A stretch of DNA of 64,000 bases from a candidate division FCPU426 bacterium (GTDB lineage: Bacteria; Oederibacteriota; JAAXVQ01; JAUVAV01), in assembly GCA_040756875.1 (NCBI GenBank), contig JBFLYH010000002.1, positions 446,644 through 510,643 on the forward strand, in the 5' to 3' direction. How positions within the stretch are numbered: position 1 is the stretch's first letter; every line of letters starts with the position of its first letter. Below the pieces are notes generated by a model, which saw nothing but the letters and a program-made list of their open reading frames with translations, was not told the origin of the DNA and searched no databases. The translations under genes and the position numbers were made by a program. Of this stretch, positions 3,861 to 55,958 are shown piece by piece.

Positions 3861-4976
3861 TCAGCAGGAAGCGAGAATCTGCCGGTACATTCCGCGCGTA
3901 AGGGAAATGATCCGCTCCCAGGAAAAATAAGCGCGGCTTACTTCCAATGCCTCGCGGCGCAGGCTGGCCGTGAGCTCCGGGTGGTCCAAAAGATGCAGGA
4001 TGCCTTGCGCCAGATCCACGGGATCGCGGGGCCGTACGGCCCAAAAATGCCGGTTGGCCGTCAGCTCTTCGAGCGCCAGCGGCGGGTCGGTGGAGATCAC
4101 CGCCAGGCCGTGCGCCAGCACGGCCACCAGGCTGCTGCGGTTCAGGCGCGCGCCCTCGGAATACGGCTGCACGGCAATGCGGCCGGAGCGCAGGGCCGCG
4201 CCGGCTTCAGCCGCGGGCAAATAACCCGTGAACACCACCTCGGCCTCGAGCCCAAGCGCTTGAATGCGCTGTTTGACGATCCGGTGGTAGGCGTAGGCTT
4301 CGGGTTCCAGGGCCGTGACCGCCAGCAGGCGCTGGGGCCGGCCCTGGCCTTTGAGGCGCGCCAGGGCCAGGAGCAAATCTTCCCAGCCTTTGTTCGGCAT
4401 GATGGTGCCGAAGTGGACCAGGTCCGTCGCCGCCGGCCCGGTTGCGGCCTCCGGAGTTTCCGCTTCCAGGGGATTGCCCAGCGGAATGATCTGAATCTTT
4501 TCCCGGCAGGACGGAAAATCGTTTTCCAGGGCTTTTTGATCCAGGCGGTTGGTGCAGATCAGGCGGTGCGCGAAGCGCAGGGTCGGCCACAGCCGGGCTT
4601 TGCCCTTCCAGGTGAACTGGCGGTATTCGTGCAGGGTCGCCACGCGGCGGCCGCGGAACCCCGTCAGTTCCAGCGCCGGAAAAAGCAGGTTGGGCGCCAA
4701 GCCCAGGCCATAGCCCAGGGCCGGATAATGCAGATGAACCACTTCAGGCGCCAGCCGGCGCACATGCGCCGCCAGCTCCAGGGTGCGGGCCGCGTTCCAG
4801 TCCAATTGCAGGGGCAGGAGCTCCACTTGAGCTGCCGGCGGTGCGGCGACCGAAGCGGAAGTCAGCACCTGCACGCTTTCTCCGGCCGCGGACAGCCGTT
4901 CGGCCTGCAGATAAACCTGGTCTCCCACCCCGCAGCGGACCGGGGGGTAGGAGGCGGAGATCAAACAGACTCTCAT
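3861..4976 (-). CDS. Glycosyltransferase family 4
   Basis: Start MRVCLISASYPPVRCGVGDQ... at 4976. ATGA overlap with the upstream Wzy-like gene's stop. The 805-aa ORF 3861..6278 is an antisense/over-extended artefact; only its C-terminal 371 aa look like protein. Confidence 0.7.
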   Translation of the reverse strand: MRVCLISASYPPVRCGVGDQVYLQAERLSAAGESVQVLTSASVAAPPAAQVELLPLQLDWNAARTLELAAHVRRLAPEVVHLHYPALGYGLGLAPNLLFPALELTGFRGRRVATLHEYRQFTWKGKARLWPTLRFAHRLICTNRLDQKALENDFPSCREKIQIIPLGNPLEAETPEAATGPAATDLVHFGTIMPNKGWEDLLLALARLKGQGRPQRLLAVTALEPEAYAYHRIVKQRIQALGLEAEVVFTGYLPAAEAGAALRSGRIAVQPYSEGARLNRSSLVAVLAHGLAVISTDPPLALEELTANRHFWAVRPRDPVDLAQGILHLLDHPELTASLRREALEVSRAYFSWERIISLTRGMYRQILASC

Positions 4977-6394
4977 GGCTGCCGCTCCGGCTGGCGCGAC
5001 CGCGCCCGGCGCAGCCACGCCAGCGCTGCGGCCGCGGCCACGGCCGCGTGCATCCCGCGGTCGTGAACCAGCCCTTGTTCGGTGAAATTGGCGGCAAAGA
5101 ATCCGGCCAGTCCGGCGGCCAAGGCCCAGCCTGCGGCTTGCGGCCAGCCGGCAGGCAGGCGCCGCAAATACCCGGCCATTCTGGCCACGTAGCGCCAAAC
5201 CGCCAGCCCAACGGCCGCCAGGCCCGCGGCCCCGGTTTCCACGAGCACGGTCAGCCACAGGGAATGCGGATGCGTGAGCAGGCCGATGGGATTGACGCTG
5301 CCCGAGCCCCACAGCGGCGCCACATGCCGGTACATGCCCGGCCCGATCCCCAGCCAGGGCGAAGTCGCCAGCATCCGGCCGGACACGAACAGGTAATCCC
5401 AGCGGTCCTGCCAGGAAGACAGCTTGTCCTCCCAAAACGGCCCGCTGAGCAGTTCGGGTTTCAGGCCGATGAACAGGGCCGCGCCGGCCAAAGCGATGAT
5501 CGTTGTCCATAAGCCCCAGCGCGGCTGTTCGCAAGCGGCCCATCCCAGCAACACGGCCGCAGCGCAGGCCACGGCCAGCCAGCCGGTCAGGGAGAAGGTC
5601 ATCAGGAACCCCGCGGTCATGCACGCGCAGGCCAGCAGGCCCGCCAGCCGGCCCCAGGGCCGGGGATGGAACAGGGCCGCGGCCGCGCTGAAGGGCAGCA
5701 GCAGGGCCAGGTACATGGCCAGGGCATTGGCCCCGAATCCGGCGGCCGCGCGCACCGTGTCGCCCGCGGCCAGGGAAATGCGGGTCAGCTCCGGCCGGGC
5801 GCCCGCGCCGGCCGCAACCTCGGCCACGCCTGTCCAGGCGCTGATCACGGCAGCCGCGATCATGGCCCAGAACACGCGTTCCGCGTCGCGGCTGCGGCGC
5901 AGCCAGCCCAGGGTCAGCAGAAACGCCAGCAGAAATTCCCACCAGCGCAACAGGCCGCGCCAGGCGGCCGGCGCCTGAGCCAGCCAGGCGGACAGGGCCA
6001 GCACCAGCACAAACGGCCAAAACCAGCCCAGGGCCGAAAGGATTTGGGCGCGCCAGGACGGCTGGCGGAACCAATGCCAGGCCGCGCCGGGCAGGGCCGC
6101 CAGCAACAGCATTTCGCCGGTGTATACGGTCAGCAGCCCGCCGAATTCCCGCGCGTACTCGAACGGCAGGCAAAACACCCACAAGGCCGGCAGCCAGCAC
6201 GGGGCCATGAACCCCAGCAGCAGCGCGGCCGCGCCGAGGACCATGTCCGCCATGGCCGAGCCGCGGCCGAGAAACCAAACCAGCCCGGCGGCCAGGCTCA
6301 CGGCCAGGGCGGCCCGGTCCTGGCGCCGGGCGAGAAAAAGCGCCCGGCCCGACGCGCCGAAGAAGCCGGCGGAAAAATCGGCGGCCGCGAACAT
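4973..6394 (-). CDS. O-antigen ligase / Wzy-type polymerase family membrane protein (Wzy_C domain)
   Basis: 473 aa, polytopic. Contains ...SPWLGIGPGMYRHV...GSVNPIGLLTHPHSLWLTVLVETGAAGL..., typical of the O-antigen ligase domain. Confidence 0.65.
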   Translation of the reverse strand: MFAAADFSAGFFGASGRALFLARRQDRAALAVSLAAGLVWFLGRGSAMADMVLGAAALLLGFMAPCWLPALWVFCLPFEYAREFGGLLTVYTGEMLLLAALPGAAWHWFRQPSWRAQILSALGWFWPFVLVLALSAWLAQAPAAWRGLLRWWEFLLAFLLTLGWLRRSRDAERVFWAMIAAAVISAWTGVAEVAAGAGARPELTRISLAAGDTVRAAAGFGANALAMYLALLLPFSAAAALFHPRPWGRLAGLLACACMTAGFLMTFSLTGWLAVACAAAVLLGWAACEQPRWGLWTTIIALAGAALFIGLKPELLSGPFWEDKLSSWQDRWDYLFVSGRMLATSPWLGIGPGMYRHVAPLWGSGSVNPIGLLTHPHSLWLTVLVETGAAGLAAVGLAVWRYVARMAGYLRRLPAGWPQAAGWALAAGLAGFFAANFTEQGLVHDRGMHAAVAAAAALAWLRRARSRQPERQP

Positions 6395-6395
6395 G

Positions 6396-6902
6396 TCAGC
6401 GGGAAATGGGTTGCATAAAGGAGAGGTATTGGCGGGCGCCGTCGTCCAGCGGCTTGACGCGTGTGATCAGCCCCGAGCATTCGACTTTCGCGGTCATGAT
6501 CAGGCACCAGACCCCGGCCCGCAGTTGCGCGGGTTCCGAAGGAAAACCCGGATGCAGGCGGACCAGGCGCAGCGGGCCGCTGATCCTCAGCTTGATCAGC
6601 ATGTCCTGCCGGCCGGCCAGGGGCACGGGCGAAGGCAGGGCGTCCAGGGGCTGGACAGGCTGCAGGGAAAGGATCTCGGCCACTTTCCTGCCCTGCGAAT
6701 CCAGCACTGCGTCACCGGGCGCGAGCAGGGCCATCAGTTCCGGCAGGGGTTTGGGCACCCTGACCTCGGCTATGGCCACGCCGTTGAAATCCCCGCCATT
6801 CGCGCCCCGCGACAGGGCGTAGCGCACCACCATGCCGGCGGCAAACACAGCCAGCAACAGCACCAGCAAATCCCACCACCGCAGCGTCCAGTCGGATTTC
6901 AT
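6396..6902 (-). CDS. Small membrane-anchored protein of unknown function (N-terminal TM helix, about 168 aa); paralogue of 25829..26335
   Basis: MKSDWTLRWWDLLVLLLAVFAAGMVV... has a single N-terminal hydrophobic segment followed by a soluble domain. Sits 1 nt upstream of the Wzy-like gene. Confidence 0.5.
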   Translation of the reverse strand: MKSDWTLRWWDLLVLLLAVFAAGMVVRYALSRGANGGDFNGVAIAEVRVPKPLPELMALLAPGDAVLDSQGRKVAEILSLQPVQPLDALPSPVPLAGRQDMLIKLRISGPLRLVRLHPGFPSEPAQLRAGVWCLIMTAKVECSGLITRVKPLDDGARQYLSFMQPISR

Positions 6903-9510: not shown

Positions 9511-10236
9511 TCAGCGTTTCCGGTGGCGCCACAGAATCCGGAACAAATCCCCCAGCATCCTCCAGGCGTCCCGCAGGGGCGACACTTTGGAGTGCCGGGA
9601 ATTGCGCCAGGCCACCGGCACCTCGCGGATCTCCAGCCCCTGCCGCCTGGCCAGGTAGAGCACCTCGACGTCGAAGCCGAACCCCGGAACGGTCAGGCGC
9701 GGAAAAAGTGCGCGGGCCGCGTCCCGGCGGAACAATTTGAACCCGCACTGGGTGTCATGAACGCCCGGCAGCACCAACAGCTGCACCAGGCGGTTGAACG
9801 ACTTCCCCATCCACTCGCGGTAAAAGGGCTGGTGCTCTTCGATGCGGCTGCCGGCCACGGCCCGGGAAGCAACGGCCACATCCGCGCCGCCGGCGAGCGC
9901 CTGTTCCAGGCGGAGCAACTCCTCGATCGGCGTGGACAGGTCGGCGTCCGAAAACAACACGACGGCGCCGTTGGCCGCGGCCACACCCCGGCGCACCGAG
10001 GCGCCCTTGCCGCGGTTGCGCCGGTTGCGCAGCACCCGCAGGCGGCCCGAACGGAAGGGATGGGCCAGCGCCAGCTCGGCGGTCCGGTCCCGGCTGCCGT
10101 CATCCACCACCACGACTTCACAGGAGCGCGCCTGGACGCGGAAAAACCGGTCGACGGCCTCCAAGGTCGCACCCAGCCGTTCGGCTTCGTTATAGGCGGG
10201 AATGACGATGCTCACCTCGCAGGCCGGCCGGGTCAC
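9511..10236 (-). CDS. GT2 polyprenyl-phosphate sugar synthase (DPM1/GtrB/ArnC-like)
   Basis: VSIVIPAYNEAERL...VVVVDDGSRDRT...LFSDADLSTP..., a soluble 241-aa GT2 of the DPM1-like type. ATGA overlap at 10233-10236. Confidence 0.7.
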   Translation of the reverse strand: MTRPACEVSIVIPAYNEAERLGATLEAVDRFFRVQARSCEVVVVDDGSRDRTAELALAHPFRSGRLRVLRNRRNRGKGASVRRGVAAANGAVVLFSDADLSTPIEELLRLEQALAGGADVAVASRAVAGSRIEEHQPFYREWMGKSFNRLVQLLVLPGVHDTQCGFKLFRRDAARALFPRLTVPGFGFDVEVLYLARRQGLEIREVPVAWRNSRHSKVSPLRDAWRMLGDLFRILWRHRKR

Positions 10237-11549
10237 GCGGGGCTCCTGGCTGGTTCGGGTTTTCGGTCAACCAAGCGGCGATACCCAAAACCGATTCCGA
10301 TCACCAGGGCCAGATGGATGCCGCGCGCGTAGATGACCAGCACGTCGAACATATTATGGAAGAGAAAGGCCAGGCAGCTGGCGGCCAGGGCGACCAGCAT
10401 GGCCCGGTCCGCGAAGGTCGGAATGGTTTTCAGGTTGCGCAGCAGCCGGACGAAAGTCATGATAATGAAAAAACTGAAAGCCGCCAGGCCCAGCAAGCCG
10501 GTTTCCACGCCGATCTGCGTGTATAAATTATGGATGTGTTTGTCCAGGTAAGGCGTTTCACCTGGATAGGCCTTGAGGCTCGACTGGATGGCAATCAGGT
10601 AATTCCCGCCGCCGTGGCCGAAAACCGGTTTTTGCGCGATCAGCCGCCAGCCGAGTTTCTGGTAGAACACGCGCCCCGTGACCGCCGTGTCTTCCTTGAC
10701 GTTGGTCAGGCTGCCCAGCCGGCTGTTCAACTTGGAGACGTAGAACGGCAGCACCAACAACAGCGCGATGAACACCAGGAAAAGCAGCAACGACCGCAGG
10801 ATGTTTTTGGGAATGTAATACAGGAGCAGGATGCCCACAGCCAGGAAGGTGCTGAGCCAGCCGCCCCGGGAATAGGTCGTGGCCAAGGTCAGGCCCAGGA
10901 TCAGGACCACGACTCCCATCAACACCAGCCCCCTCGGCTGCTGCTGTTCAAAAAACAATTCCAGCGCCAGGGGGATCAGCAGGATCAGAAAGCCCGCAAA
11001 CTGGTTGGCATGCCCGAAGGTGGAATGCGCCCGCATGACCCCTTTGACCTGGTTCATGCCGTCCAAGCCGGCGGAGGAGGAAAACAGGTTCAGCCCGGTG
11101 AAATGCTGGGTCAGCCCCATCAGGCTGGCCAGAAGTCCGGCGCCGATAATCACCCTGAGCAGGAGATTGAACCGCGTGTGGTCCCGGAAACAGGTCCCGG
11201 CCACCAGCATGACCAGCAGGAATTCCCCCCAGCGGATGCACTGCTTTACCACGCCCCAGAAATCAACGGCGTCGAGGGCGGAAAGCGCGACCGCAACCAT
11301 GAACGGCAGGAAAATCCAATACACTTTGCCCAGGTCTTTCCAAAAGGAGCCCTGCTTGAAATGACGGAGGATAAAGCCGAGCCCGACGCCCAGCAAATAG
11401 ACTTCGTTGGTGTAGACGGTGGGCGGCAATTCCAGGGCAAAGTCGAACGGCAGCAGGACCGCCATGCCCACCACCGCCCAGAACGGGTCGCGAACAGCGA
11501 GCAGCCAGCCTGCCAAACAGAGCGCCAGAGCCAGGGTGTAGGTGATCAC
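10233..11549 (-). CDS. O-antigen ligase / Wzy-like polymerase family membrane protein
   Basis: 438 aa, polytopic. Contains ...TYSRGGWL... and ...HNLYTQIGVETGLLG..., typical of Wzy_C. Confidence 0.6.
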   Translation of the reverse strand: MITYTLALALCLAGWLLAVRDPFWAVVGMAVLLPFDFALELPPTVYTNEVYLLGVGLGFILRHFKQGSFWKDLGKVYWIFLPFMVAVALSALDAVDFWGVVKQCIRWGEFLLVMLVAGTCFRDHTRFNLLLRVIIGAGLLASLMGLTQHFTGLNLFSSSAGLDGMNQVKGVMRAHSTFGHANQFAGFLILLIPLALELFFEQQQPRGLVLMGVVVLILGLTLATTYSRGGWLSTFLAVGILLLYYIPKNILRSLLLFLVFIALLLVLPFYVSKLNSRLGSLTNVKEDTAVTGRVFYQKLGWRLIAQKPVFGHGGGNYLIAIQSSLKAYPGETPYLDKHIHNLYTQIGVETGLLGLAAFSFFIIMTFVRLLRNLKTIPTFADRAMLVALAASCLAFLFHNMFDVLVIYARGIHLALVIGIGFGYRRLVDRKPEPARSPA

Positions 11550-14427: not shown

Positions 14428-16239
14428 TCATTTAAGGGGTTTTTCGGGCTCCGGAGCAGGATAAAAGCTCCAGACTTGGATCGGTTCGGCAGGGTTCCAG
14501 GGAGCAAGCGGCTTCAGTTCAGGCAAATCACGTTGCAGGTCGGCCAGCAGGCGGCTCACTTTTTCTTCGCGGCACACCAGATAGCCGATGGAAAGCTCGT
14601 TAAAAACGCGGCGAAGTTCCCGGGGCGATTCGATGGGCTCGGCCCGCATCAATTGCCCCAGGATGGCATACTGCTTTTTATACTGTAGTTGCAGGAAAGA
14701 CTCCCGCGAGGTATTGCCGCCGATCAGGGGGTGTTCGTGATACGTCTGGAACAGAAACGGCCGCGCCTGCTTGACCCAGGGCGAAGTGGGCATGTCGAGC
14801 ACCGCCCGGGTGCGGTCAGGATCCTGGCGTATGGCCCGGTATGCCGGCATTTCCCGGGCGGTTGAGTTGACCGGGTAAGGGACAGTCAGGAACTCGAACA
14901 GCAGCAAACCGAGAATCAGCCAGAAGCGCTGCCGCAGCGCCTGGCAGCTCAGACCGAAAAGGACCGTGGTTGCCAGCAAGGGCAGGAAAACAAACCGGGC
15001 CGGCTCGCGGATCCCGTTCAACAGCGGGAGATAATGGATCAGGGCATACGGCGCAGGCCAGGTCACTTCCCCGAACCCTTTGAGGTCGTAGAAAACGAAA
15101 CCCGGTATGACGTTCAGCGGCAGGCCGAACAGGCGGACAAACGGCCCCAGGGCAAAGAGCCAGAACCCCACGCCCATCCACAACCAGCGCCGGGCCCCGG
15201 CTTCAGGCCACCATCCCCGCCGGCCCAGTATGATCACCGTGAGCGTCGTCCAGCCCAGCGAAGCGACCCGTTCGGCCGCATTGCCGCCCAGGGTGTCGCT
15301 GCCCGTGATGCGCAAGGTTTCGCCCAGTTGGTGGGCCAGCCGGCCCCAGAGCGGGTGCAGTTCCGACGGAAACAAAACGCCGGCCGCATCCAGGGCGAAA
15401 TATTCCGCACCGCCCCAACCGCCGGTGTGCAGGGCCAGCAAATTGAACTGCTTCATTTCCGCCAGCATTTGCCAGATAAAGTAGCCCAGCAGCGCGGCCA
15501 GTCCCAGGGCGCTGGGTGCGAGTTTCAATAGAAAAGGCACGAGTTGCCCGCGGTCTTTCCAGAGCAGATACAGCACATACCCGGCGATCAGCAAACCCAG
15601 AAAAAGAAACCCCTGGTAGTCGCTGAAAAACAGGTACAGGCCCCAGGCTACCAAGCCCGCCTGCCGCCCCCATTCCCAGCGCACGCCGGCCGGCCGGCGC
15701 CACAGATAAATCATCCAGGGAATGGCTTCGTTGCTGATCGAATGAAAATGCCCCATGCCATGGGCCATTTGAAAGGGTGCCAGAGTGTAAAAGAGGCCTC
15801 CCAGAAAGGCTGCGCGGTCGTCGATCCCGAAGGTCTTCAGCATTCTGAAAGCGCCCCAGCCGCGAAGGCCGAAGGTCAGCAGAAAACCCGCGTTGTAGGC
15901 AAAGATGTCGTTCACAGCCAGGGAGAACGGCACGAGCAGCAGGGTCTTGGCCGGCGACCAGGTGTGCATGAGCAAACTGATGCGCAGGGGGTAATAGAGG
16001 TCGTGAGTGAAGAAAGGGTGGCCGCCCGTGGCCAGCACTTTCTTCCAATGCCAGATGCCCCAGATGAACTGCATGGCATCCGGGCCGCGGCCTGGGATCA
16101 GGGTCGCCAGGTCCGTGACAAGGGGGTAAGTATAAATCATCCCCAGCAGAACGTAAACCGCGGCTGCCCACCAGCCCTGGCCAAACCCTTCGGCGCGACG
16201 GGGCGCCTGCACCAATGTTGCGGAGGAAGCGCGGTTCAC
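14428..16239 (-). CDS. Large polytopic membrane protein (603 aa) of unknown family; candidate GT-C-type glycosyltransferase or polymerase
   Basis: Hydrophobic N-terminal two thirds (YTYPLV...), soluble C-terminal domain. ATGA overlap with the upstream GT39-like gene. Confidence 0.4.
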   Translation of the reverse strand: MNRASSATLVQAPRRAEGFGQGWWAAAVYVLLGMIYTYPLVTDLATLIPGRGPDAMQFIWGIWHWKKVLATGGHPFFTHDLYYPLRISLLMHTWSPAKTLLLVPFSLAVNDIFAYNAGFLLTFGLRGWGAFRMLKTFGIDDRAAFLGGLFYTLAPFQMAHGMGHFHSISNEAIPWMIYLWRRPAGVRWEWGRQAGLVAWGLYLFFSDYQGFLFLGLLIAGYVLYLLWKDRGQLVPFLLKLAPSALGLAALLGYFIWQMLAEMKQFNLLALHTGGWGGAEYFALDAAGVLFPSELHPLWGRLAHQLGETLRITGSDTLGGNAAERVASLGWTTLTVIILGRRGWWPEAGARRWLWMGVGFWLFALGPFVRLFGLPLNVIPGFVFYDLKGFGEVTWPAPYALIHYLPLLNGIREPARFVFLPLLATTVLFGLSCQALRQRFWLILGLLLFEFLTVPYPVNSTAREMPAYRAIRQDPDRTRAVLDMPTSPWVKQARPFLFQTYHEHPLIGGNTSRESFLQLQYKKQYAILGQLMRAEPIESPRELRRVFNELSIGYLVCREEKVSRLLADLQRDLPELKPLAPWNPAEPIQVWSFYPAPEPEKPLK

Positions 16240-21095: not shown

Positions 21096-22079
21096 TCAAG
21101 GCTTCAGAAAATACCCTTGCCGTATCCGGTATTCGTTTAAAATTTCTTTATCCGTCACTGACGTCCGGCGTTTTTGTCCCATAAAATAATATCCGGAAGC
21201 GGCCAAAGCCGAATCACGACGCCCAGCCAAATAGTAGTCAAAGTATTTCAAACCAAATGCCGTAAGATGAACGAAAAGCGTCGCGATTTTCTGCATAATG
21301 CCGGATTGAAAAAAAGCCATAAGAAAATTTTTGATTATTTCCGCCAAGGCTACGCCAGGACCGTTGACAATACCCGATGCCAGTTCGTCAAATTGCCGAA
21401 AAAGCCGGCGGTGACCTATGGGCGTATAACGGGTGAAATCATAGGGCCAGCCATGAATCGGTTGCATAAAAGGCGTTTCGGCGTACACCAACGCTCGTGA
21501 CTTAAGTACGCGCCAAATCTCGGCGACGCATGCCGGTGCATCCGCCACATGCTCCAACACCGCTTGCACGATTACCGCATCGAAGTATCCGTCAGGAAAA
21601 GGTATCTGGTGGGCATCTACAATAACGGCCGTCCTTGGCCCAAAGGATACATCCGTTTCGATCAAGCGCAAGTCCGGAAAGCGCAACAGGACTTTTATGC
21701 CTTCGCCAATTATACTGCCGCCTAAAATCAATACTTTGGGGTGGGGGTGTTGCCGCAACAAACGCCCCGCCAACTTTTGGTAATTTGCCGCCGCGGATAT
21801 ATTGCACGACAGTTTGGGCAGCAAATGAAATACCTTTTTTCCCAACGTGGGTCTCGCGGTGTTTTTGAAAAAGGTGTCTTTGCGCTCCAAGTAGTCTCGT
21901 TGTTGAAATACGCTGCGTCTTTCATCAATCATGACCGGAATACCATCCACAATCGGAAAAGTCAGACGGCATGTTTTTTTATCGCACAGCAATTCGTTTT
22001 TTAGCCTGTGCAACCGGGAACCGCAGGCCGGACACCGTAAATCATTATGGTTGAATGGATCTTCTGGTTTAGACATCAT
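21096..22079 (-). CDS. Class I SAM-dependent methyltransferase with N-terminal Trm112-like zinc ribbon (CPACG...C..C)
   Basis: MMSKPEDPFNHNDLRCPACGSRLHRL...CDKKTCRLTFPIVDGIPVM..., then a methyltransferase fold (...VLILGGSIIGEG...VIVQAVLEHV...). Markedly lower GC than neighbours. The ATG at 22079 has GGAAAG 7 nt upstream; the ATG at 22103 is an alternative. Confidence 0.6.
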   Translation of the reverse strand: MMSKPEDPFNHNDLRCPACGSRLHRLKNELLCDKKTCRLTFPIVDGIPVMIDERRSVFQQRDYLERKDTFFKNTARPTLGKKVFHLLPKLSCNISAAANYQKLAGRLLRQHPHPKVLILGGSIIGEGIKVLLRFPDLRLIETDVSFGPRTAVIVDAHQIPFPDGYFDAVIVQAVLEHVADAPACVAEIWRVLKSRALVYAETPFMQPIHGWPYDFTRYTPIGHRRLFRQFDELASGIVNGPGVALAEIIKNFLMAFFQSGIMQKIATLFVHLTAFGLKYFDYYLAGRRDSALAASGYYFMGQKRRTSVTDKEILNEYRIRQGYFLKP

Positions 22080-22106
22080 TTTCGCTTTCCGGATGTGAAC
22101 CATCGT

Positions 22107-22826: not shown

Positions 22827-23949
22827 GGCGTTTGCACAACTCCCCGGCCAGTGCTTCCAGCGCACGGGCGGATTTTTCCCACGAAAAACGTTCCAGTTGC
22901 CTTCCGCCGGCCTCGGTCAGCTTCGCCGCCGCGTCGGAATCCAGCAGCGAATTCAAGGCGCCGGCTATGGCTGACTCGGACAGTGGATCGAAATACACCG
23001 CGCCGTCGCCGGCTACTTCCCGCAACACGGGCAAATCCGAACACGCCACCGGCGTGCCGCAGGCGAACGCCTCCAGCACCGGAATGCCGAAACCTTCATA
23101 CAGCGTCGGAAACACCAAGGCCGTGGCGCCCTGATACAGGCCGGGCAATTCGGCCAGCGGCAGATGTCCGGTCAGCAGCACCCGTTCGGACAAGCCCAGT
23201 TTCTCAATCTCAGCCCGGACGGTCTCTGAATCGTCCAGATCCTGTTTGGGGCCTGGTTGGCCGACCAAAACCAGGGATATCCCCGAATGGGCCCTGGCCA
23301 CTTCGGCGAACGCCCGGATCAGCCGCGGCAAATTTTTTCTTTTTTCCATGACCCCGACGTGCAGAAAATATCTCTTCGGCCGCAGTCCCCGGCCAGCCAG
23401 CGCCGGGGCGATCTGCCCGGGCAGGGCAGGCCGGTACACCTCGCGGTTGCAGGCCGGCGGCACCACCGCGATCTTGTCCGCCGGCACCTTAAACAGTTCC
23501 GCGATTTGCCGCTTGGCCGTTTCGGTAATCGTGACGATCCGGCCGGCCGAACGGATCGCCGGTTTATAGATCCATTGAAACAGCATCAGCCAAAAACGGT
23601 TGTACTCCGCCGGGCGCAGAATGAACGCCGCATCATAGACGACCACCAGGCGCGGCAGCGGGCAAAAGCGGGGCGACAGGTATTCCGGGGAGAGCAGAAC
23701 GTCGCATCCCTTCCGCCAGGCCAGAAACGGCAGCTGGATTTGAATCCACCCCCACAGGCGCGCGTGGTTCCATATGGTGCCCCACTTGCCGCCGGATTTC
23801 ACCGGATACTCTTCGGGAATGAATTCCCGGATCTCCGTCGGGCTGCCGCCGCGCCGCCAGACGCCCAGCAATTCCCGGATATACACGCCCGCCCCGGTCC
23901 GGGCAGTGGCCAGACAGGCCAGATCCATCCCTATCCGCAAGGGGTTCAC
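22807..23949 (-). CDS. Glycosyltransferase family 4
   Basis: 380 aa. Carries ...LVFPTLYEGFGIPVLEAFACGTPVACSDLPVLREVAGD... Confidence 0.7.
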   Translation of the reverse strand: MNPLRIGMDLACLATARTGAGVYIRELLGVWRRGGSPTEIREFIPEEYPVKSGGKWGTIWNHARLWGWIQIQLPFLAWRKGCDVLLSPEYLSPRFCPLPRLVVVYDAAFILRPAEYNRFWLMLFQWIYKPAIRSAGRIVTITETAKRQIAELFKVPADKIAVVPPACNREVYRPALPGQIAPALAGRGLRPKRYFLHVGVMEKRKNLPRLIRAFAEVARAHSGISLVLVGQPGPKQDLDDSETVRAEIEKLGLSERVLLTGHLPLAELPGLYQGATALVFPTLYEGFGIPVLEAFACGTPVACSDLPVLREVAGDGAVYFDPLSESAIAGALNSLLDSDAAAKLTEAGGRQLERFSWEKSARALEALAGELCKRHAEKNH

Positions 23950-25832
23950 AGCGCCTGAAACTCCTTCGTTTCAGACGGCGCCCGAAGATCGGCGTTATTC
24001 TGGAAAACCCAGCCAATCAGCCACCAGGTAATGAAAACCAGGAAGTAATTAATGTAAACCTGCGACGTCATTCCCAGAATCACAATACTGGAAAGCGCGG
24101 CTAAAGCAATTACAGCAACCCACTGAACAATTTCATTCTTGTTCTGCATGATTACCCTTGCTAGAGCGGCCAGAACGATGCCATGTAAAAAGATGAAAAG
24201 CCCCATGCCCATCAAGCCGATTTCCCTTCCCAAAATGAGATATTGATTCTCGCCGCCGACAGTGCCCTGAAATCGTTTCCCAATAAATCCCGCGCTGCCA
24301 AGTCCGGTACCCGTCATTTGTTGTTGGATGATATCCACGCTTTTCTTCCATTCTCCCAAGTGCCCCTGCGCTGAAGCTTCCTGGAAGGTTGCTGTACCAA
24401 ATATCCATTGGCTTAACTCATTGGTGGCAAAAATAATCAGCGCCAAGGCTGCCGTTAGCCATATTAACCGCCACCCCAAGTGGAGATGTCGGTGGTGTAA
24501 AAACCAGGTCAGCAGCAACAGTTCGACACCCGCGCCGAAAATCGCCGCCCGGGTAAAGGCGAGTAAAAATACCGACATTAAAAAGGAAAAAACCAAAATA
24601 CGGAGCGTCGATTGTTTGGCATTCCTGGCCTGCGCGCACCAATAAACAGTCACAGGTATGATTAGTATCATGGCATAGGCAAAATCGATAGGGCCTAGGA
24701 AAAAACTGCCCAGACGCCGGACAATGTACCCTTCCAGCCAAAAAGTGAATGGCAAACCATTCGGCGTAGGGAAAACACTATTAAATGAGTGTTTAATATA
24801 ATCCGTATATCCCAAATGAAGCCAGATATCGGTAAGCACGAAGCCCTTTTCCAGCGCGCCGGCCAGACAGGCCGCGATACCCAAGGCCAGCATGGCCAGG
24901 AAAAACCGCTTGATTTGATCAGAAGACAGGCTGAACATCCGCCCCAGGTAAAAACAAACGATAAAATACACATTGTAGCGGAGGCTGTACAGCGCGGCAT
25001 GGGGCACCGCCGAACCCCGGGCCTGGTAAAAGGCGGCGAAATTGAAAACCACGAAAACCGCCAACAGGAAATCCGTCCACCCCAACCGCGGTTTGGCCTG
25101 CCCGCTGAACCAAAGCCAGCCGGCTTTGGCCGCCAATACCACCAGCAGGATGTCCTTCCAGGCCCGAATCAATTTATCGGCCATGGGACTCAGGCCGACT
25201 TGTTCGGTTAAAAAAGTCATCATTAAATGGTGCACGGGCAGCAGCAGCAGGAACAGCCACAATCCCAGTTGCGGTTTGTGCCAGGTTAAAACCACCAGCC
25301 AACCCAATACCGCCAGGGCGGCCAGGGAATTGTACCTTCCGCTGAACATCAACATGCCGATAAAGCCCGCGAACAACGCCAAGACAACCGCGGCCGAGCG
25401 ATCGTCAACAGCGCCTTCCCGGCGTTGTTCAAACCAGGCCAGCCAGAGCCCGAATCCACTCAAGATTGTTTTCAGTTCCCAAAACGGGATCCAGCCTCTC
25501 AGCCAGAGATTGCATAGCGTATTAATTATCATGGCAGCTGACATTCCCAAGCCAAAAACGAAAAGCGGACGGCCAAGGGCCAGCGCAAAGATGCTGCTGC
25601 GGCGGAGGCGGTCAAGCAGATAGGTCGAGGTCAAGCCGGCGGACCAGCTTGCCAGCAAGCCCGTCAATCCCAGGCCGCCGGCCCACCACTTCAACAGGAG
25701 GGAACGGCCGGCTGCCGAACGCACTTTCTCAATCCAGGTGGAGATCAGGGAAGTTGAAAACGCGGCTGTGATTTTATCCCACATGTCGGAAAACGCCCGC
25801 GGCTTCCATGCCGATGCAGAAGAGGATTTCAC
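23946..25832 (-). CDS. O-antigen ligase / Wzy-like polymerase family membrane protein (large, 628 aa); low-GC gene
   Basis: Polytopic. Carries ...FTRAAIFGAGVELLLLTWFLHHRH... and ...ILGREIGLMGMGLFIF..., typical of Wzy_C. Roughly 50% GC versus about 68% for the surroundings. Confidence 0.6.
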   Translation of the reverse strand: MKSSSASAWKPRAFSDMWDKITAAFSTSLISTWIEKVRSAAGRSLLLKWWAGGLGLTGLLASWSAGLTSTYLLDRLRRSSIFALALGRPLFVFGLGMSAAMIINTLCNLWLRGWIPFWELKTILSGFGLWLAWFEQRREGAVDDRSAAVVLALFAGFIGMLMFSGRYNSLAALAVLGWLVVLTWHKPQLGLWLFLLLLPVHHLMMTFLTEQVGLSPMADKLIRAWKDILLVVLAAKAGWLWFSGQAKPRLGWTDFLLAVFVVFNFAAFYQARGSAVPHAALYSLRYNVYFIVCFYLGRMFSLSSDQIKRFFLAMLALGIAACLAGALEKGFVLTDIWLHLGYTDYIKHSFNSVFPTPNGLPFTFWLEGYIVRRLGSFFLGPIDFAYAMILIIPVTVYWCAQARNAKQSTLRILVFSFLMSVFLLAFTRAAIFGAGVELLLLTWFLHHRHLHLGWRLIWLTAALALIIFATNELSQWIFGTATFQEASAQGHLGEWKKSVDIIQQQMTGTGLGSAGFIGKRFQGTVGGENQYLILGREIGLMGMGLFIFLHGIVLAALARVIMQNKNEIVQWVAVIALAALSSIVILGMTSQVYINYFLVFITWWLIGWVFQNNADLRAPSETKEFQAL

Positions 25833-26335
25833 GGTTTCGCGAAAGGTTGGTAATCCTGACTGATGATTTCGCCCAGCTGGTTGACCCGGGAGTTGTTCAG
25901 CTCAAACTCCTGGCCGATTTGGAGTTTCAAAACGAACGAGGAATGGCTATAGATCATTTTCGAGGGATAAACCAGCACCGGCCGGTTGAAAAGCACATGC
26001 AATTTGACTTCATTTTTAAAGGGGTGGTTTTCGACGACCAACCGCCCGTTGACGTCGTTGTTGACGATCTTTTCCGGCGTGACCGAAAGGATGTTGTCGA
26101 TCGAGCCATACGACCGCACGCCGCTTTTAAAGCGCAGGCTGTACAACTTGTCGCCCGCTTGCAACGAATCAATGACCGCCTGCGGCTGGTTCTTCAGCAT
26201 CACGCCGACTCCGGTGATTTGCCCGATCGGTTTCGCTCCTCCAATTACTTTGGTTCCAAAGAAAATCGCGGCACCGAAAAACAGAATCAAGACCGACCAA
26301 TCAATAAAATTGAATCTCTTTATAGGATTTTCCAC
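25829..26335 (-). CDS. Small membrane-anchored protein (about 168 aa), paralogue of 6396..6902; likely GTG start
   Basis: GTG at 26335 is preceded by GGGAGGG 8 nt upstream, giving VENPIKRFNFIDWSVLILFFGAAIFFG... with a single N-terminal TM. ATGA-type overlap with the downstream Wzy-like gene. The annotated ATG at 26491 adds an implausible low-complexity N-terminus. Confidence 0.5.
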   Translation of the reverse strand: MENPIKRFNFIDWSVLILFFGAAIFFGTKVIGGAKPIGQITGVGVMLKNQPQAVIDSLQAGDKLYSLRFKSGVRSYGSIDNILSVTPEKIVNNDVNGRLVVENHPFKNEVKLHVLFNRPVLVYPSKMIYSHSSFVLKLQIGQEFELNNSRVNQLGEIISQDYQPFAKP

Positions 26336-26481
26336 CTTGGAACCCTCCCGGAAAGGCGGTATGTTACGGCAACTATACCTGAAAGTCAAATTAAAACGGC
26401 CCTCAAACCGGGGGCCGAACCAGCAGCATTGTACCTCGATTGCACTTTTCGCGATACTTAAAAAATATGGCCGGAAAAGGC

Positions 26482-26510
26482 TTGAAAACACAGCCTGACC
26501 ACTATATTCT
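26482..26510 (+). promoter_or_regulatory. Sigma70-like promoter TTGAAA-N17-TATTCT upstream of the only plus-strand gene
   Basis: Read directly; about 65 nt upstream of the ATG at 26578. Confidence 0.4.
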
Positions 26511-26577
26511 GGCTGCTGATTGCGGGCATGGTAATAGCCCTGAATGCCTTACTCTTTTCCGGGAAAGCACGGTTTTC

Positions 26578-28116
26578 ATGATTCCTGGCAATGCTCAGCG
26601 TTCCATCCGAATACTCCAAGCCGCCCTGATGGCTGTCGCTGCCTGCTATATCGGTCTGTACATCTGGGTGGCGCTCCAGCGCCTGGGATATCCCTTTGAA
26701 TTGGAATGGATCGAAGGCGCGATGGTGGATACAGTCCAAAGGATCCTGGACGGAAAGCCGTTGTTTGTCCAACCTTCCTTGGATTACGGCTATTTCATGT
26801 ACACCCCGTTGTATTTCTGGATTTCAGCCGCCGTGGCTAAATGGATCGGCATCGGGTTTCTTCCCTTGCGATTGGTTTCCTTTGCCTCCTCGCTGGGGTG
26901 TCTGGCCCTGATTTACGCCCTGGTTTTCCATGAAAACCGCAGCCACTGGGCCGGGATGGTCGCTGCCGGCTTGTTTGCGGCTACTTTCAAAATAAGCGGA
27001 GCCTGGTTCGACATTGCGAGGCTCGACTCCCTGTTCCTGCTTTTCACCCTGGCGGCGCTGTATAGCCTGCGCCGCTCCCGGCTGGCCTGGACGTGGCAAC
27101 TACTGACCGGGGTCATGCTTTTTCTGGCATTGCTTGCCAAGCAGGCGGCGCTGATCATCTTTGCGCCGGTGTTGCTGGCCGGGCTGTGGTTTGAGCCCCG
27201 AAAAACGGCGCCGGCCGTCCTGATTGCCGCGGTAATGAGCGCGGCCGCCTACGGCTGGGGCAATTGGGTTTCCCACGGCTGGGTCCATTATTACCTGTTC
27301 GAACTGCCCAGGCACCATCCGTTGCTGCCGAATATCTTCCTGGATTATTGGACCTTGGATTTGTTGAAACCCATGCCCATCGCCCTGGGTTTGTCCTTGT
27401 GGGCAGCCGTTCTTTTTTTAAGGAACCAACAGCCTGGCAATTATTTTTACGGATTAGCCGGTCTGGGCATGGTGGGCGCTTCTTATCTGTTCCGCCTGCA
27501 TTTCGGCGGCTACAACAACGTGCTTTTCCCCGTGTACGCCTGGCTGGCCATGGGTTTCGGCTTGGCGTTGCCCGAGATCCTGCGTCGGCTGCAATCGCCG
27601 GCCTCGGAACCGCGCCCATGGACTGTCGGGACGGCTGTCCTGGTCCTGGGCCTGTGCCTGCTCCAGTTCGGAATGCTGTTTTACGATCCTTCCAAGCAGA
27701 TCCCCACCCCGGCTGACCGTCAAGCCGGCCTGGCTTTCATTGAAAAAATGAAGTCCTTCCCCGGCGATGTCTATGTCCCTTTCACCGGTTATTTGCCGAC
27801 TTTGGCCGGCAAAAAGACCTTTCTCCACCAAGGCACACTGGCCGACATTCTGATCAAAGGCCGGGCGGACAGGACCAGCAAACAATTGTCGGAAGAAATC
27901 CGGCAGGCCATCCGCGAACAAAAGTTTGCGGCCCTGATTACAATCAATGGCGATCTGGCGGACAACCGGTCGCGGTTTCTGGAGCTTTTCGGTGAGGATA
28001 TGCGTGGTTATTACCGGCTCGAGGAACAACTCGCCTGGGGGGACTGCTTCATGCCGGTTACCGGCGCGCCCCGCCGGCCGGAAAACGTGTGGGTGCCGGT
28101 AAAGACCCAGCAATGA
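26578..28116 (+). CDS. GT39/ArnT-like (PMT_2) GT-C glycosyltransferase
   Basis: MIPGNAQRSIRILQAALMAVAACYIGLYIWVALQRLGYPFELEWIEGAM..., polytopic, about 512 aa. The annotated upstream ATG at 26440 is probably an over-extension. Confidence 0.6.
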   Translation: MIPGNAQRSIRILQAALMAVAACYIGLYIWVALQRLGYPFELEWIEGAMVDTVQRILDGKPLFVQPSLDYGYFMYTPLYFWISAAVAKWIGIGFLPLRLVSFASSLGCLALIYALVFHENRSHWAGMVAAGLFAATFKISGAWFDIARLDSLFLLFTLAALYSLRRSRLAWTWQLLTGVMLFLALLAKQAALIIFAPVLLAGLWFEPRKTAPAVLIAAVMSAAAYGWGNWVSHGWVHYYLFELPRHHPLLPNIFLDYWTLDLLKPMPIALGLSLWAAVLFLRNQQPGNYFYGLAGLGMVGASYLFRLHFGGYNNVLFPVYAWLAMGFGLALPEILRRLQSPASEPRPWTVGTAVLVLGLCLLQFGMLFYDPSKQIPTPADRQAGLAFIEKMKSFPGDVYVPFTGYLPTLAGKKTFLHQGTLADILIKGRADRTSKQLSEEIRQAIREQKFAALITINGDLADNRSRFLELFGEDMRGYYRLEEQLAWGDCFMPVTGAPRRPENVWVPVKTQQ

Positions 28117-28331: not shown

Positions 28332-29975
28332 TTATTCAACAGGATTTGCAGGCGAGAGTTTAAAGAGGTACCAGCCGGCTCCCTGGTCGTTCAGCGGACG
28401 GAAAGCGGCCACTTCCCACGTTCCTTGAAAATCCCGCAGCCGCTGCAACCCTAAATGGCTCCAATTTTCCAGAACCAGCGGTTTTTCGGCCATAAGGCGC
28501 GTCGGTTCTTCCGGCAAGTACAAAGCCAGATAGCGGCCGTTTTTTGCCGTCAAATAGTCGAGCTCCCTGCCGGTCTGTACAAACTGCCGGAAGTACTGGT
28601 CCGAACCGGCGACCCCGTCCAAGGGAATCACCCGGCGCTGCGAAAACTGCGCAAAGCATCCCGGCCAAAAAGCGCCGACAGGCTCGGAGGCCGGAACGAT
28701 CCTTTCGATGTCCCGGGCGAGATTCAGCCGTTCGACCCAGTAGGGCAGCGGTTCCACGCGGCGGCCGGAGGCGTTCCAGATGACCGCCCCGGACAGTGCC
28801 GCGCAGACGGCCGCGGCCGCCCACAGCCGGACCTTGCCGGCAGCTCGGTTTCGATTCGAATCCAGCCAGGCCCAAAGCGCGCTGCCGGCTGTAACCAGCA
28901 CCCATAAAATTTCAGGCAGAAAATAATAGGCCGTGTAAACGCGCAATTCCCGGTAAAACACGTGCATGTACAGGGCGTGCAGGATAATGGCCAGGCTGAA
29001 CACGCGGAATCCCGCGGTAACTTCCCGGCGCTTCCAGATCCACCAGCAGGCTCCGGCCGCAACCGCGAGCGTCACCCCTGCCTTGACAGCCGTGCTAGCC
29101 CGCTCCAGCCAGGGCAAGGGGGCTGCAAACGCATGGAACCAGCCCTGCCATTCATCCGACCTGAAATAGCCGGCCCAGGTTGGGTAGAAAGCATTCAGAT
29201 AATGCAACTTGACCCGCCCGCTGATGGGCATGACCGAGCCTTGCGTCAGGATATTGGCTGTCAGATAAGGGGCCACGGCCAGGGTCAGGACCGCTCCAAA
29301 AACCAAAGCAGAGGCGCGCGGTGCTTTCCAGGCCAGCCACAACCCAACCACCAGCCCCACCCAGAACAAATCCGTGCGGCAGAAAAAGCAGACGGCCGCC
29401 AAAACGCCCAGCCCGCCCGCCCGCAAGGGTGAAAGCCGCCTTACGGCTTCCCCCTCCAACCGAGACAGCGAAAGCAGGGTAAGCATAACAGCCCCCAAAG
29501 CCAGCGGCACTTCCAGACCCTTGACCGCGATGCTTTGAAAACCCGGATTTAATATATAGGCGGCTAACACCGCGGCCAAAGCCGCTTGGGCAGGTAAGGA
29601 TCCCTTTTTTCCGCCGATGAACCACCCGGCCAGAAAGGCAAACACAACGTAGCAGCCCCAGGATAGAACCGCTAACAGTTTCAGGGAATCCGCGCCTGGG
29701 AATGAACGCTGCAGCAGGATTTGCAGCAGCATCCACAAAGGCTGGACACCGTTGGTGGGCATTTCCCCGTCCAGGGTCAGGATGCCATGTTGCAGAAACT
29801 GCTTGGCCAACACCGAATAGAAGAAGGCGTCATCCGTCAACAAGCCGCAACGAACCAGATCCAGCGGGTTCCACAACAGGAAACGGCTGAGTTGGATACC
29901 CGCCGCCACGGCAAACGCGGCGCCCCAAGCCAGGCGCAGCCAAACATCCCTGCGGGCATTCGATGAGTCATTCAT
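28332..29975 (-). CDS. Large polytopic membrane protein (about 547 aa) of unknown family; candidate GT-C glycosyltransferase (DUF2029/GT87-like topology)
   Basis: Start MNDSSNARRDVWLRLAWGAAFAV... Many TM segments followed by a C-terminal soluble domain. Confidence 0.4.
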   Translation of the reverse strand: MNDSSNARRDVWLRLAWGAAFAVAAGIQLSRFLLWNPLDLVRCGLLTDDAFFYSVLAKQFLQHGILTLDGEMPTNGVQPLWMLLQILLQRSFPGADSLKLLAVLSWGCYVVFAFLAGWFIGGKKGSLPAQAALAAVLAAYILNPGFQSIAVKGLEVPLALGAVMLTLLSLSRLEGEAVRRLSPLRAGGLGVLAAVCFFCRTDLFWVGLVVGLWLAWKAPRASALVFGAVLTLAVAPYLTANILTQGSVMPISGRVKLHYLNAFYPTWAGYFRSDEWQGWFHAFAAPLPWLERASTAVKAGVTLAVAAGACWWIWKRREVTAGFRVFSLAIILHALYMHVFYRELRVYTAYYFLPEILWVLVTAGSALWAWLDSNRNRAAGKVRLWAAAAVCAALSGAVIWNASGRRVEPLPYWVERLNLARDIERIVPASEPVGAFWPGCFAQFSQRRVIPLDGVAGSDQYFRQFVQTGRELDYLTAKNGRYLALYLPEEPTRLMAEKPLVLENWSHLGLQRLRDFQGTWEVAAFRPLNDQGAGWYLFKLSPANPVE

Positions 29976-30025
29976 GCGTTCGAGCGCGCTCCTGATATTA
30001 TGAACAGATACAGCGACTAAGCTGG

Positions 30026-30958
30026 TTAACGTATGCGCGAGGGAATGTGTCCCATGAGTCCGCTCCACAATCCCTTAATAATTCCCAGCGCTTTATTGGG
30101 CCTTCCCAAAATAACTTGCGTGAATATAATTGCGATCCGGGTAACCACAATGGTTAAATAACCCAGCATTATTTGCCACCATCGTCCGTGTTTACGCAAC
30201 AGCCAGAAACGATTGCGGGTAGCGATGAACCATTTATAGCGGCTGACCGTTCCCTGCAAAGCCGGGCCGGCGTTTTTCTTGAACGACACGGCATGATGAT
30301 GAATAACCACCGCCTGGGGGGCGAGCAGGAGCGTCCAGCCGTCTTTCAGCAGGCGCAGGGACAGGTCGGCGTCCTCGAAGTACGCGTGAAAAGCCTCGTC
30401 AAACAAACCGGTCTGTTTCAGGGCTGCGGCGCGGAACAGCGGGCAGCAACCGTTCAGGAACCCGATTTCCCTTGCGGCGCGCTCTTGCGGGTTCGGATCA
30501 GGCTTGAGTTCGCCCGGGTGACAGGGTCTCAGCGTGGCGCGAGTGAAATAACCGCCGTTAAAATATAGGGTGCCCGCAGGTTCGTAATAGAATATTTTCG
30601 GGGCCACGGCGCCGGCTTGAGGATGGCCGCGCAGGGCGTCTAGCATTTTTTCCAGGCAGTCGGGCTTCAACAAGGTGTCATTGCTGGGCGTCACGACATA
30701 ATCCGCACCGGCCTCCAGGGCCCGGCGCAAGCCGATATTCATGCCGCCCGCGAAGCCGACGTTGACTGGCTGGAAAACGTATTCCACGCGCGGATAGGCG
30801 GCGCGCAACGGCGCTTCCAAGCCGTCCGTGCTGCCGTTGTCCACGACGATGATCCGGTCCGGCGGACGCGTCTGGCTCTCGAGCGTGGCCAGGCAAGCCA
30901 GGGTGTCCTCCCGGCCGTTCCAGCTCAGCACCACGGCCCAGACGGAATCAGGGTTCAT
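30026..30958 (-). CDS. Glycosyltransferase family 2 (WbbL/rhamnosyltransferase-like)
   Basis: VWAVVLSWNGREDTLACL...IIVVDNGSTDG...NVGFAGGMN..., a soluble 310-aa GT2. Confidence 0.7.
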   Translation of the reverse strand: MNPDSVWAVVLSWNGREDTLACLATLESQTRPPDRIIVVDNGSTDGLEAPLRAAYPRVEYVFQPVNVGFAGGMNIGLRRALEAGADYVVTPSNDTLLKPDCLEKMLDALRGHPQAGAVAPKIFYYEPAGTLYFNGGYFTRATLRPCHPGELKPDPNPQERAAREIGFLNGCCPLFRAAALKQTGLFDEAFHAYFEDADLSLRLLKDGWTLLLAPQAVVIHHHAVSFKKNAGPALQGTVSRYKWFIATRNRFWLLRKHGRWWQIMLGYLTIVVTRIAIIFTQVILGRPNKALGIIKGLWSGLMGHIPSRIR

Positions 30959-47044: not shown

Positions 47045-47066
47045 CACCCTGCCTTGCGGGCGGGAC

Positions 47067-48170
47067 TCACACAATCGTTTGTTCGGTTTCTTTGTCGAAG
47101 AAATGGGCTTTGCTCATGTCAAGGACGAGATCCATGTCCTGATTGACTTCCAACTGCTCGTACGTGTCCATGCGCGCGATAAAGGGCGTTTTGCCGGTCG
47201 TGAGATAGATGAAGGCGTCCCAGCCCATGGGTTCCACCACTTCCACGGTGGCGGTGATCGTGTTTTCCGGCGACGCGGGATAATACACCTTGTCGTAGAT
47301 GTTTTCCGGCCGGATGCCCATGACCAGTTCCTTGCCCACCAAGTCCTCCAGGGCAGCCGCATGGTCGTCGTGAATCTTGACCGTGAAATTTTCCTCCGAA
47401 AAATACAACACGTCCTTTTTCTTGATGATCGTGCCTTCCATGAAATTCATGGGCGGCGACCCGATGAAACTGGCTACGAACTTGTTGCTGGGCTGGTCGT
47501 ACAGGGTGATGGGGTCGGCGATTTGCTGGATCAGGCCGTCCCGCATGACCACGATCCGGTCGCCCATGGTCATGGCTTCCACCTGGTCGTGCGTCACGTA
47601 GATCATGGTCGCCTGCAGGCGGGTGTGCAGCTTGCCGATCTCGCCGCGCATCTGCACGCGCAGTTTGGCGTCGAGGTTGGAGAGCGGTTCGTCGAAGAGA
47701 AACACCTTGGGATTGCGCACGATCGCGCGCCCCAGGGCCACGCGCTGGCGCTCGCCGCCGGCCAGGGACTTGGGCCGGGAGTCCAGCAGCCGCGTAATGC
47801 TCAGCGTTTCAGCGGCCTCCAAGACGCGGCGTTTGATCTCGTCCTTGGGGAGCTTCTTCAATTTGAGCCCGAAGGCCATGTTCTCATATACGGTCATGTG
47901 CGGATACAGGGCATAGTTCTGGAAAACCATGGCAATATCGCGGTCTTTGGGCGGAAGGTCGTTGACGACTTTGTCGTCGATCAGAATATCGCCGCTGGTG
48001 GCTTCCTCCAGCCCGGCGATCAGGCGCAGGGTGGTGGACTTGCCGCAGCCCGAAGGCCCGACCAGAACGATGAATTCCTTGTCTTCGCAGGTTAAATTGA
48101 CGTTTTGAACGGCATCCCGGTCTTTGCCGGGGAAATGCTTGCGGACATTTTTAAGGACAACCCGTGCCAA
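47067..48170 (-). CDS. ABC transporter ATP-binding protein, MalK/UgpC/MsmK-like (carbohydrate importer ATPase with C-terminal TOBE domain)
   Basis: Walker [10 protein letters not shown], signature [11 protein letters not shown], Walker [13 protein letters not shown]. No permease or SBP genes are adjacent. Confidence 0.75.
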
Positions 48171-52689: not shown

Positions 52690-52707
52690 TATTAATCAGT
52701 ATTATGT

Positions 52708-54071: not shown

Positions 54072-54107
54072 TTTATATCCCCCTTAAACCGGGTGATTTT
54101 ATCATTA

Positions 54108-55877: not shown

Positions 55878-55958
55878 CTTGCCTTCCCCTCCGGGATATT
55901 TGTTCTTTTTATATTTAGACTGACAAGACAAAATTTCATTGCACCTTTTATTTATAAA

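Follow-up and report, generated by a model that had tools for sequence, protein, structure and literature searches.

What do two small membrane proteins do when each is encoded at the very edge of a gene for a Wzy_C-like glycan enzyme? The question is raised by a stretch of 64,000 nucleotides, hereafter the window (JBFLYH010000002.1, positions 446,644 to 510,643), which is part of a 1.13-Mb contig in a metagenome-assembled genome (MAG) of candidate division FCPU426. Here the genes for two such proteins, which we call A and B, each run into a gene for a polytopic protein of the Wzy_C superfamily (Table 1). Enzymes of the Wzy_C type assemble O-antigens, capsules, S-layer glycans and cell-wall polymers, or attach them. 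To our knowledge, their control outside the proteobacteria is largely unknown, and many lineages have no Wzz.

A first-pass annotation of the window had described A and B as paralogues and proposed that they assist Wzy-like enzymes. We found that, on the profile evidence, both fall within the DUF4330 superfamily (PF14221) as remote homologues, that each is coupled to its own Wzy_C-superfamily gene, and that the pairing is kept in every related locus examined and is enriched in Firmicutes. From sequence and gene context we lean towards the view that a DUF4330 protein is a functional partner of its cognate Wzy_C enzyme.

Two coupled gene pairs in one glycan-assembly region

From 1 to 44 kb, the window is a single large glycan-assembly region that contains both gene pairs. 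It includes an initiating Bac_transf gene, two Wzx-type flippases, nucleotide-sugar enzymes, numerous GT2 and GT4 glycosyltransferase genes, four PMT/GT-C-like genes and three Wzy-like genes. Two of these three are the partners of A and B; the third, which is more canonical, adjoins the Bac_transf gene and lacks a DUF4330 gene on its upstream side.

Open reading frames (ORFs) and AlphaFold2 (AF2) models confirm the first description of A and B, in position, in length and in their plan of one N-terminal transmembrane (TM) helix followed by a soluble domain. In both models (pLDDT 72.6 for A and 84.1 for B) this domain is rich in beta structure. A corresponds to NCBI entry AB1439_08240 and starts with ATG; its 11 homologues, at 43-88% identity, share the invariant N-terminus MKSDW..RWWD, and neither the ATG start nor the opening residues MKSDWT vary among them. 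B starts with GTG at 26335. Its NCBI annotation (AB1439_08320, P0013) has only 123 residues, begins at an internal Met and lacks the TM helix. We prefer the 168-residue form because a Shine-Dalgarno sequence precedes the GTG, a promoter-like site lies further upstream, and a full-length homologue exists (P0012, 80% identity). The promoter-like site is weak and falls within a longer mechanical ORF that reaches 26491. B opens its operon and is transcribed divergently from a PMT-like gene at 26440-28116 (+).

Both junctions are as tight as first reported. Because a single nucleotide separates A from its partner gene and B overlaps its own by four, each small gene is co-transcribed and translationally coupled with its Wzy_C-superfamily gene. 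The two pairs differ sharply in sequence and in GC content: 65.9% for A and 71.6% for its 473-residue partner, 49.5% for B and 52.6% for its 628-residue partner, with a window mean of 61.2%. The earlier impression of a high-GC and a low-GC copy, paired alike across two origins, is thus borne out, and the divergence between them is very old.

A and B as remote members of the DUF4330 superfamily

Are A and B related to each other? Side by side they show no similarity (BLASTP E 0.54), and hhalign of the small A-family alignment against the small B-family alignment returned a probability of 5%. Because these direct comparisons gave nothing, the link had to run through DUF4330, a family already suggested in the first-pass annotation. 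B comes close to membership on its own: it matches PF14221 at E 2.9e-5 and 24.7 bits, over profile positions 13-164 of 167, and so falls just below the gathering score of 27.6 bits. A has no match in Pfam or NCBIfam, and PF14221 misses all 11 A-family members even at E<=10.

Profiles bridge this distance. An exhaustive HMMER search of 1.84 billion (1.84e9) representative sequences with the A-family profile returned 12 close clusters and then six proteins at E 1e-6 to 8e-4, all six being multi-repeat DUF4330 proteins according to Pfam, at 55-135 bits. Two long, weak matches of the same profile (P0028 and P0030) are low-complexity repeat proteins and were rejected as family members. With hhalign, the A family aligns to 14 canonical single-domain DUF4330 proteins at 78.5% (E 1.7e-5, 138 columns) and to a 27-sequence, B-anchored DUF4330 alignment at 93.6% (E 2e-7, 140 columns); B aligns to 14 canonical DUF4330 proteins at 86% (E 5e-6). 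Among the ORFs of the window, a hidden Markov model (HMM) anchored on B matches A at E 0.0024, and a profile search of these ORFs found no further DUF4330-like protein. Full-length, profile-level homology to Pfam-verified DUF4330 proteins is found for both A and B.

The models are in line with this. A TM helix followed by a beta domain of about 120 residues is present in both, and the elements come in the same order: TM helix, b1, short helix, b2, b3, b4, b5 and b6. In Foldseek searches against the PDB the two models also share their top neighbours, domain 2 of EF-Tu/eRF3 and the C-terminal barrels of GcvT; these matches are weak, nothing in the PDB reaches E<=1e-3, and a profile search of PDB sequences found no match.

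The N-terminal peptide and the start of the TM helix are the most conserved part of the family, more so than the beta domain. The invariant residues of canonical DUF4330 proteins are D5, G8, L10, F11, G12, K13, I14, N15, I17 and D18, and the motif G-K-I-N-x-I-D leads into the membrane. B keeps this motif (KRFNFID, FNFID); A has RWWD, in which the Asp alone is retained. Both resemble the family in their N-terminal TM helix, although (I/F)-N-x-I-D is kept in B and reduced to its Asp in A, and in their beta domain of about 120 residues, their total length of about 165 and their place in glycan clusters. They differ from it in that the Pfam model does not detect A, which has its own N-terminus, and scores B below the gathering threshold. 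Canonical Omnitrophota members differ from A and B in their turn, since they commonly have 2-4 domains in tandem, and what comes next is another small protein, called X below, rather than Wzy_C.

On the profile evidence, then, A and B are remote, anciently diverged homologues within the DUF4330 superfamily. The word paralogous survives in this remote sense; they are not recent paralogues, and pairwise comparison sees no relation. In the searchable library we found no paper that mentions DUF4330 or PF14221. We regard A and B as new and highly divergent members of a family that is known but uncharacterised.

The pairing recurs in related loci and in Firmicutes

All six distinct related loci of the A family that have downstream sequence keep the order GT2 - A - Wzy_C - GT4, down to 42% identity; a metagenome scan for further A-family loci gave 3 only. 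In both B-family loci (contigs L002/L003) the 628-residue protein likewise comes after B.

Canonical DUF4330 extends the comparison. A genome scan confirmed 239 loci, and the neighbourhoods described here are those of the best 80 of the 239. In Firmicutes a polytopic protein comes downstream of DUF4330, immediately in 14 loci and with one small gene between them in 9, and all 23 of these proteins are Pfam Wzy_C. Wzy_C thus stands at +1 or +2 in 23 of 34 loci (P 4e-7), measured against a conservative local null in which the gene takes a random place within its own locus (p0 = 0.26). Of 42 Firmicutes loci, 36 have a Wzy_C-type gene no more than 6 kb away, and the other main neighbours are GT4 genes (20/34) and CsaB-like pyruvyl transferases (7/34). 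Many Firmicutes loci have two DUF4330 paralogues near one Wzy_C.

Could both placements in the window be due to chance? With three Wzy-like genes among about 28, we estimate the chance that both small genes lie directly upstream of one at about 1%. Because of this estimate, and because the pairing recurs in every related locus examined, chance is unlikely as an explanation.

Across loci L007-L086 the number of DUF4330 domains varies by lineage. Firmicutes proteins have a single domain (154-185 residues); in Omnitrophota, Planctomycetia and Nitrospinota the tandem domains number from 1 to 4 or more (163-423 residues, and 714 in an Anammoxibacter MAG). Multi-domain forms are confined to the non-Firmicutes group, which consists mostly of these three lineages, and this limit fits, without proving it, an extracytoplasmic role that depends on the type of envelope.

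Two unusual partner enzymes

What kind of enzymes are the partners? That of A exceeds the PF04932 gathering score of 31.7 bits. That of B has no Pfam Wzy_C match even at E<=1 and no NCBIfam match; hhalign against 21 DUF4330-adjacent Wzy_C proteins aligns it at 98.8% (E 7e-17, 384 columns). The 628-residue protein is therefore Wzy_C-like at the profile-profile level only, and the early assignment of both partners to Wzy_C needs this qualification for B. The profile of DUF4330-adjacent Wzy_C proteins in turn matches the WaaL structure 7TPG (E 2e-8). Proteins of the WaaL/Wzy/PglL fold class (Wzy_C, clan CL0499) act on undecaprenyl pyrophosphate (undecaprenyl-PP)-linked glycans.

Both partners resemble this class, one by Pfam and the other by hhalign, but depart from the Arg/Arg/His signature of its conserved periplasmic, catalytic loop, each in its own way. 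The partner of A and its orthologues have Leu for the second conserved Arg (TFSLTG vs TxSRG) and keep the first Arg and the His motif (HPHS). The partner of B keeps both Arg and has GGENQYL where most members have HxHNxYL, so that Glu replaces His; about half of the Firmicutes DUF4330-adjacent partners have Asp at that position. Polymerases, ligases and protein O-glycosylases are not distinguishable here from sequence. In related loci the orthologues of A's partner usually carry a C-terminal S-adenosylmethionine (SAM)-methyltransferase domain, for a length of 661-737 residues, which the copy in the window lacks.

Weighing the partnership

Several observations weigh against a dedicated partnership. 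DUF4330 never adjoins Wzy_C in the Omnitrophota, Planctomycetia and Nitrospinota loci, so that the enrichment by which the first-pass annotation proposed to judge its idea holds for the A family, the B family and the Firmicutes and stops there. Among loci of the Omnitrophota/Planctomycetia/Nitrospinota type, just 13 of 34 have a Wzy_C no more than 6 kb away, and in about a quarter of the Omnitrophota-type loci it is found 4-6 genes downstream in the same operon. The constant neighbours in Omnitrophota-type loci are a GT1-DUF218 fusion before DUF4330 and protein X after it. Nor is a dedicated class of enzymes evident. On an HMM of DUF4330-adjacent Wzy_C proteins the third Wzy_C of the window, which is unpaired, scores 135.7 bits and outscores the two partners (75.6 and 66.5 bits); we therefore rejected a DUF4330-specific Wzy_C clade. 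Finally, adjacency within glycan clusters is partly expected from operon packing.

The GT1-DUF218 (SanA/ElyC-like) fusion is a protein of about 620 residues (e.g. L007:4099-5991) whose gene lies directly upstream of DUF4330 in nearly all Omnitrophota-type loci (L004, L006 and L007-L042). Protein X has about 185 residues, a Lys-rich N-terminal region, two C-terminal TM helices and no Pfam family. By BLAST, 27 X proteins from Omnitrophota, Planctomycetia, a Woesearchaeote and Clostridia fall into a single cluster, and in 27 loci X comes immediately after DUF4330. Two loci, L037 and L080, have X fused to the N-terminus of Wzy_C, a Rosetta-stone link that ties DUF4330, X and Wzy_C together. An HMM of X has no match among the ORFs of the window. 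The 180-residue N-terminal extension of the 628-residue protein was considered as a fused X and rejected, hhalign finding no similarity.

These neighbours suggest another reading, in which DUF4330 would be a general membrane protein of glycan clusters, with possible roles in lipid-carrier handling, flipping or export; its true partner would be X or GT1-DUF218, not Wzy_C, and adjacency would reflect compact operons. In fact, where DUF4330 is followed by a small gene, that gene is of the X family in 27 of 40 loci, and Omnitrophota-type loci keep the order GT1-DUF218 - DUF4330 - X, with Wzy_C distant or not within 6 kb. Yet the window has no X homologue and the A and B families always adjoin a Wzy_C-like gene, the fusions of X to Wzy_C point to one module of X, DUF4330 and Wzy_C, and the Firmicutes adjacency stands above the within-locus null. 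We consider this reading unlikely.

The architecture of one TM helix and 1 to 4 or more tandem barrels also recalls MCE proteins (MlaD, PqiB, LetB), and DUF4330 might by analogy form an oligomeric, envelope-spanning scaffold or conduit that moves the lipid-linked or ligated glycan away from Wzy_C. Foldseek pairs the A model weakly with Mce1 (8fed_A, E 0.13), but this match is non-significant (root-mean-square deviation 13.7 A) and is not seen with the better B model. Pfam gives no MlaD signal, the profile search of PDB sequences came back empty, and the single-domain forms of monoderm Firmicutes have no periplasm to span. Neither sequence nor fold reveals in A and B the combination that defines MCE/MlaD proteins, an N-terminal TM helix with a seven-stranded MCE barrel, and we find a conduit of this kind very improbable. 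Last, the notion that A and B are unrelated proteins of convergent architecture whose position by Wzy-like genes is coincidental, which the empty direct comparisons and the sub-threshold Pfam results would allow, is already largely refuted and hardly credible, given the several independent lines that tie both to DUF4330, the match of A to the B-anchored HMM, the common order of secondary-structure elements and the synteny kept in every related locus.

Coordinates and other features of the window

Coordinates are collected in Table 1. Two low-GC islands, at 51232-55931 and 21096-22103 (42-48% vs the window mean of 61%), may have been acquired horizontally. Their genes encode a PMT_2-type GT-C protein (51232-52689), a 262-residue protein, a Trm112-methyltransferase and a 607-residue protein with weak PorV/UPF0164-like similarity (E 0.001-0.002). 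Three large proteins, of 603, 578 and 722 residues (14428-16239, 28332-30068 and 44906-47074), have no Pfam or NCBIfam family; the last lies beside a MalK-like ATP-binding cassette (ABC) ATPase, and its OstA/LptD_N-like similarity is non-significant (E 0.1-0.2).

Table 1. Positions of the features discussed. Plain numbers refer to the window; numbers after an L handle refer to that locus.
Feature	Position	Strand	Basis or remark
Protein A, 168 residues, divergent DUF4330-like single-pass membrane protein	6396-6902	(-)	ORF, homologues, profiles, AF2 model
TM helix of A, residues 9-34	6801-6878	(-)	AF2 model helix and hydrophobic stretch; WWDLLVLLLAVFAAGMVV
Junction of A and Wzy_C: TGA, 1 nucleotide, ATG	6392-6398	(-)	sequence reading; cgcTGAcATGttc
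Partner of A, 473-residue polytopic Wzy_C (O-antigen ligase/polymerase superfamily)	4973-6394	(-)	PF04932 48.1 bits, E 1.4e-12
Protein B, 168 residues, divergent DUF4330 single-pass membrane protein	25829-26335	(-)	Pfam, hhalign, AF2 model
TM helix of B, residues 10-31	26243-26308	(-)	AF2 model
Junction of B and partner: GTGA, 4-nucleotide overlap	25829-25832	(-)	sequence reading
Shine-Dalgarno GGGAGGG, 7 nucleotides before the GTG of B	26343-26349	(-)	sequence reading
Promoter-like site TTGACT-17-TAACAT upstream of B	26361-26389	(-)	consensus scan; 2 sites vs 0.7 expected; weak
Partner of B, 628-residue polytopic divergent Wzy_C-superfamily protein	23946-25832	(-)	hhalign
Third Wzy_C gene	10233-11549	(-)	Pfam Wzy_C 92 bits, more canonical; IctB/PEP_O_lig models also similar
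Wzy_C-methyltransferase fusions	L001:6518-8632, L087:1449-3626, L091:2001-4121, L093:4483-6648, L094:4440-6551		orthologues of A's partner
X, examples	L012:6693-7265, L070:6522-7052		directly follow DUF4330
X fused to Wzy_C N-terminus	L037:600-2507, L080:3013-4899		two loci

What a DUF4330 protein may do

How might a DUF4330 protein serve a Wzy_C enzyme? If the partnership that we favour holds, the DUF4330 protein would be a stoichiometric subunit that docks on its cognate enzyme through the N-terminal peptide and the TM helix; a membrane-embedded docking surface fits, because these are the most conserved parts of the family. The beta domain or domains would then lie on the outer face of the membrane and handle the growing or transferred glycan, or its acceptor, and polymerisation or ligation would be tuned thereby, making DUF4330 a functional analogue, not a homologue, of the Wzz co-polymerase. 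Counts of Lys and Arg flanking the TM helix (positive-inside rule) are balanced, at 3.9 on the N side and 3.1 on the C side. To assign it to chain length, specificity or assembly would be pure inference, and any specific activity is much less likely than the partnership itself.

Wzz is the obvious comparison. It is a small inner-membrane protein of Wzy-dependent clusters that contacts Wzy through a TM helix, much as we propose for DUF4330, and regulates polymerisation; its long alpha-helical periplasmic domain lies between two TM helices, and it assembles into octameric bells (PMC10030265, PMC12004945). A 2025 review of Wzy names no Wzy partners other than Wzz and the phage peptide Iap. A and B are likewise small membrane proteins of a glycan cluster, but each has a single TM helix and a beta-rich domain, and in sequence they are unrelated to Wzz; neither has a Wzz Pfam match (PF02706) or the two TM helices and coiled-coil domain of that family, so that the likeness would go no further than a functional analogy. 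Among the genes scanned from 1 to 56 kb of the window, none showed a Wzz/PCP domain, in agreement with the original placement of A and B outside the canonical scheme, and the niche of a Wzz-type protein is therefore open here.

MreC offers a second, purely conceptual analogy, with no homology implied. It crosses the membrane once, has beta-barrel domains outside the cytoplasm and regulates RodA-PBP2, a polytopic polymerase whose substrate is an undecaprenyl-PP-linked glycan. The Firmicutes pairs, for their part, recall the loci for pyruvylated secondary cell wall polymers, in which WpaA and WpaB, members of the Wzy/WaaL clan, are proposed polymerases or ligases (PMC6030368). Like these, DUF4330 - Wzy_C pairs lie among GT4 and CsaB-like genes. 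WpaA and WpaB differ in belonging to PF13425 and not PF04932 and in having no DUF4330 partner described, and the organism of the window is not a Firmicute.

A broader picture can be drawn, tentatively. DUF4330, X and Wzy_C could form an unrecognised polymerase or ligase module present in several phyla, in which the single-pass beta-barrel protein would fill the co-polymerase place that proteobacteria give to Wzz and the number of tandem barrels, from 1 in monoderms to 4 or more in diderms, would set its reach or the length of the product. We regard this picture as a whole as rather doubtful.

The tie to Wzy_C by gene context gives a useful lead that can be tested, and is no surprise of principle. 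The analysis brought to light a subfamily that Pfam misses (the A family), corrected a truncated gene call (B) and flagged X as an unannotated component of the module. For DUF4330 itself, a conserved, coupled, single-pass partner of Wzy_C enzymes would be a first functional context, and would make these proteins candidate regulators or subunits of the enzymes beside which they are encoded.
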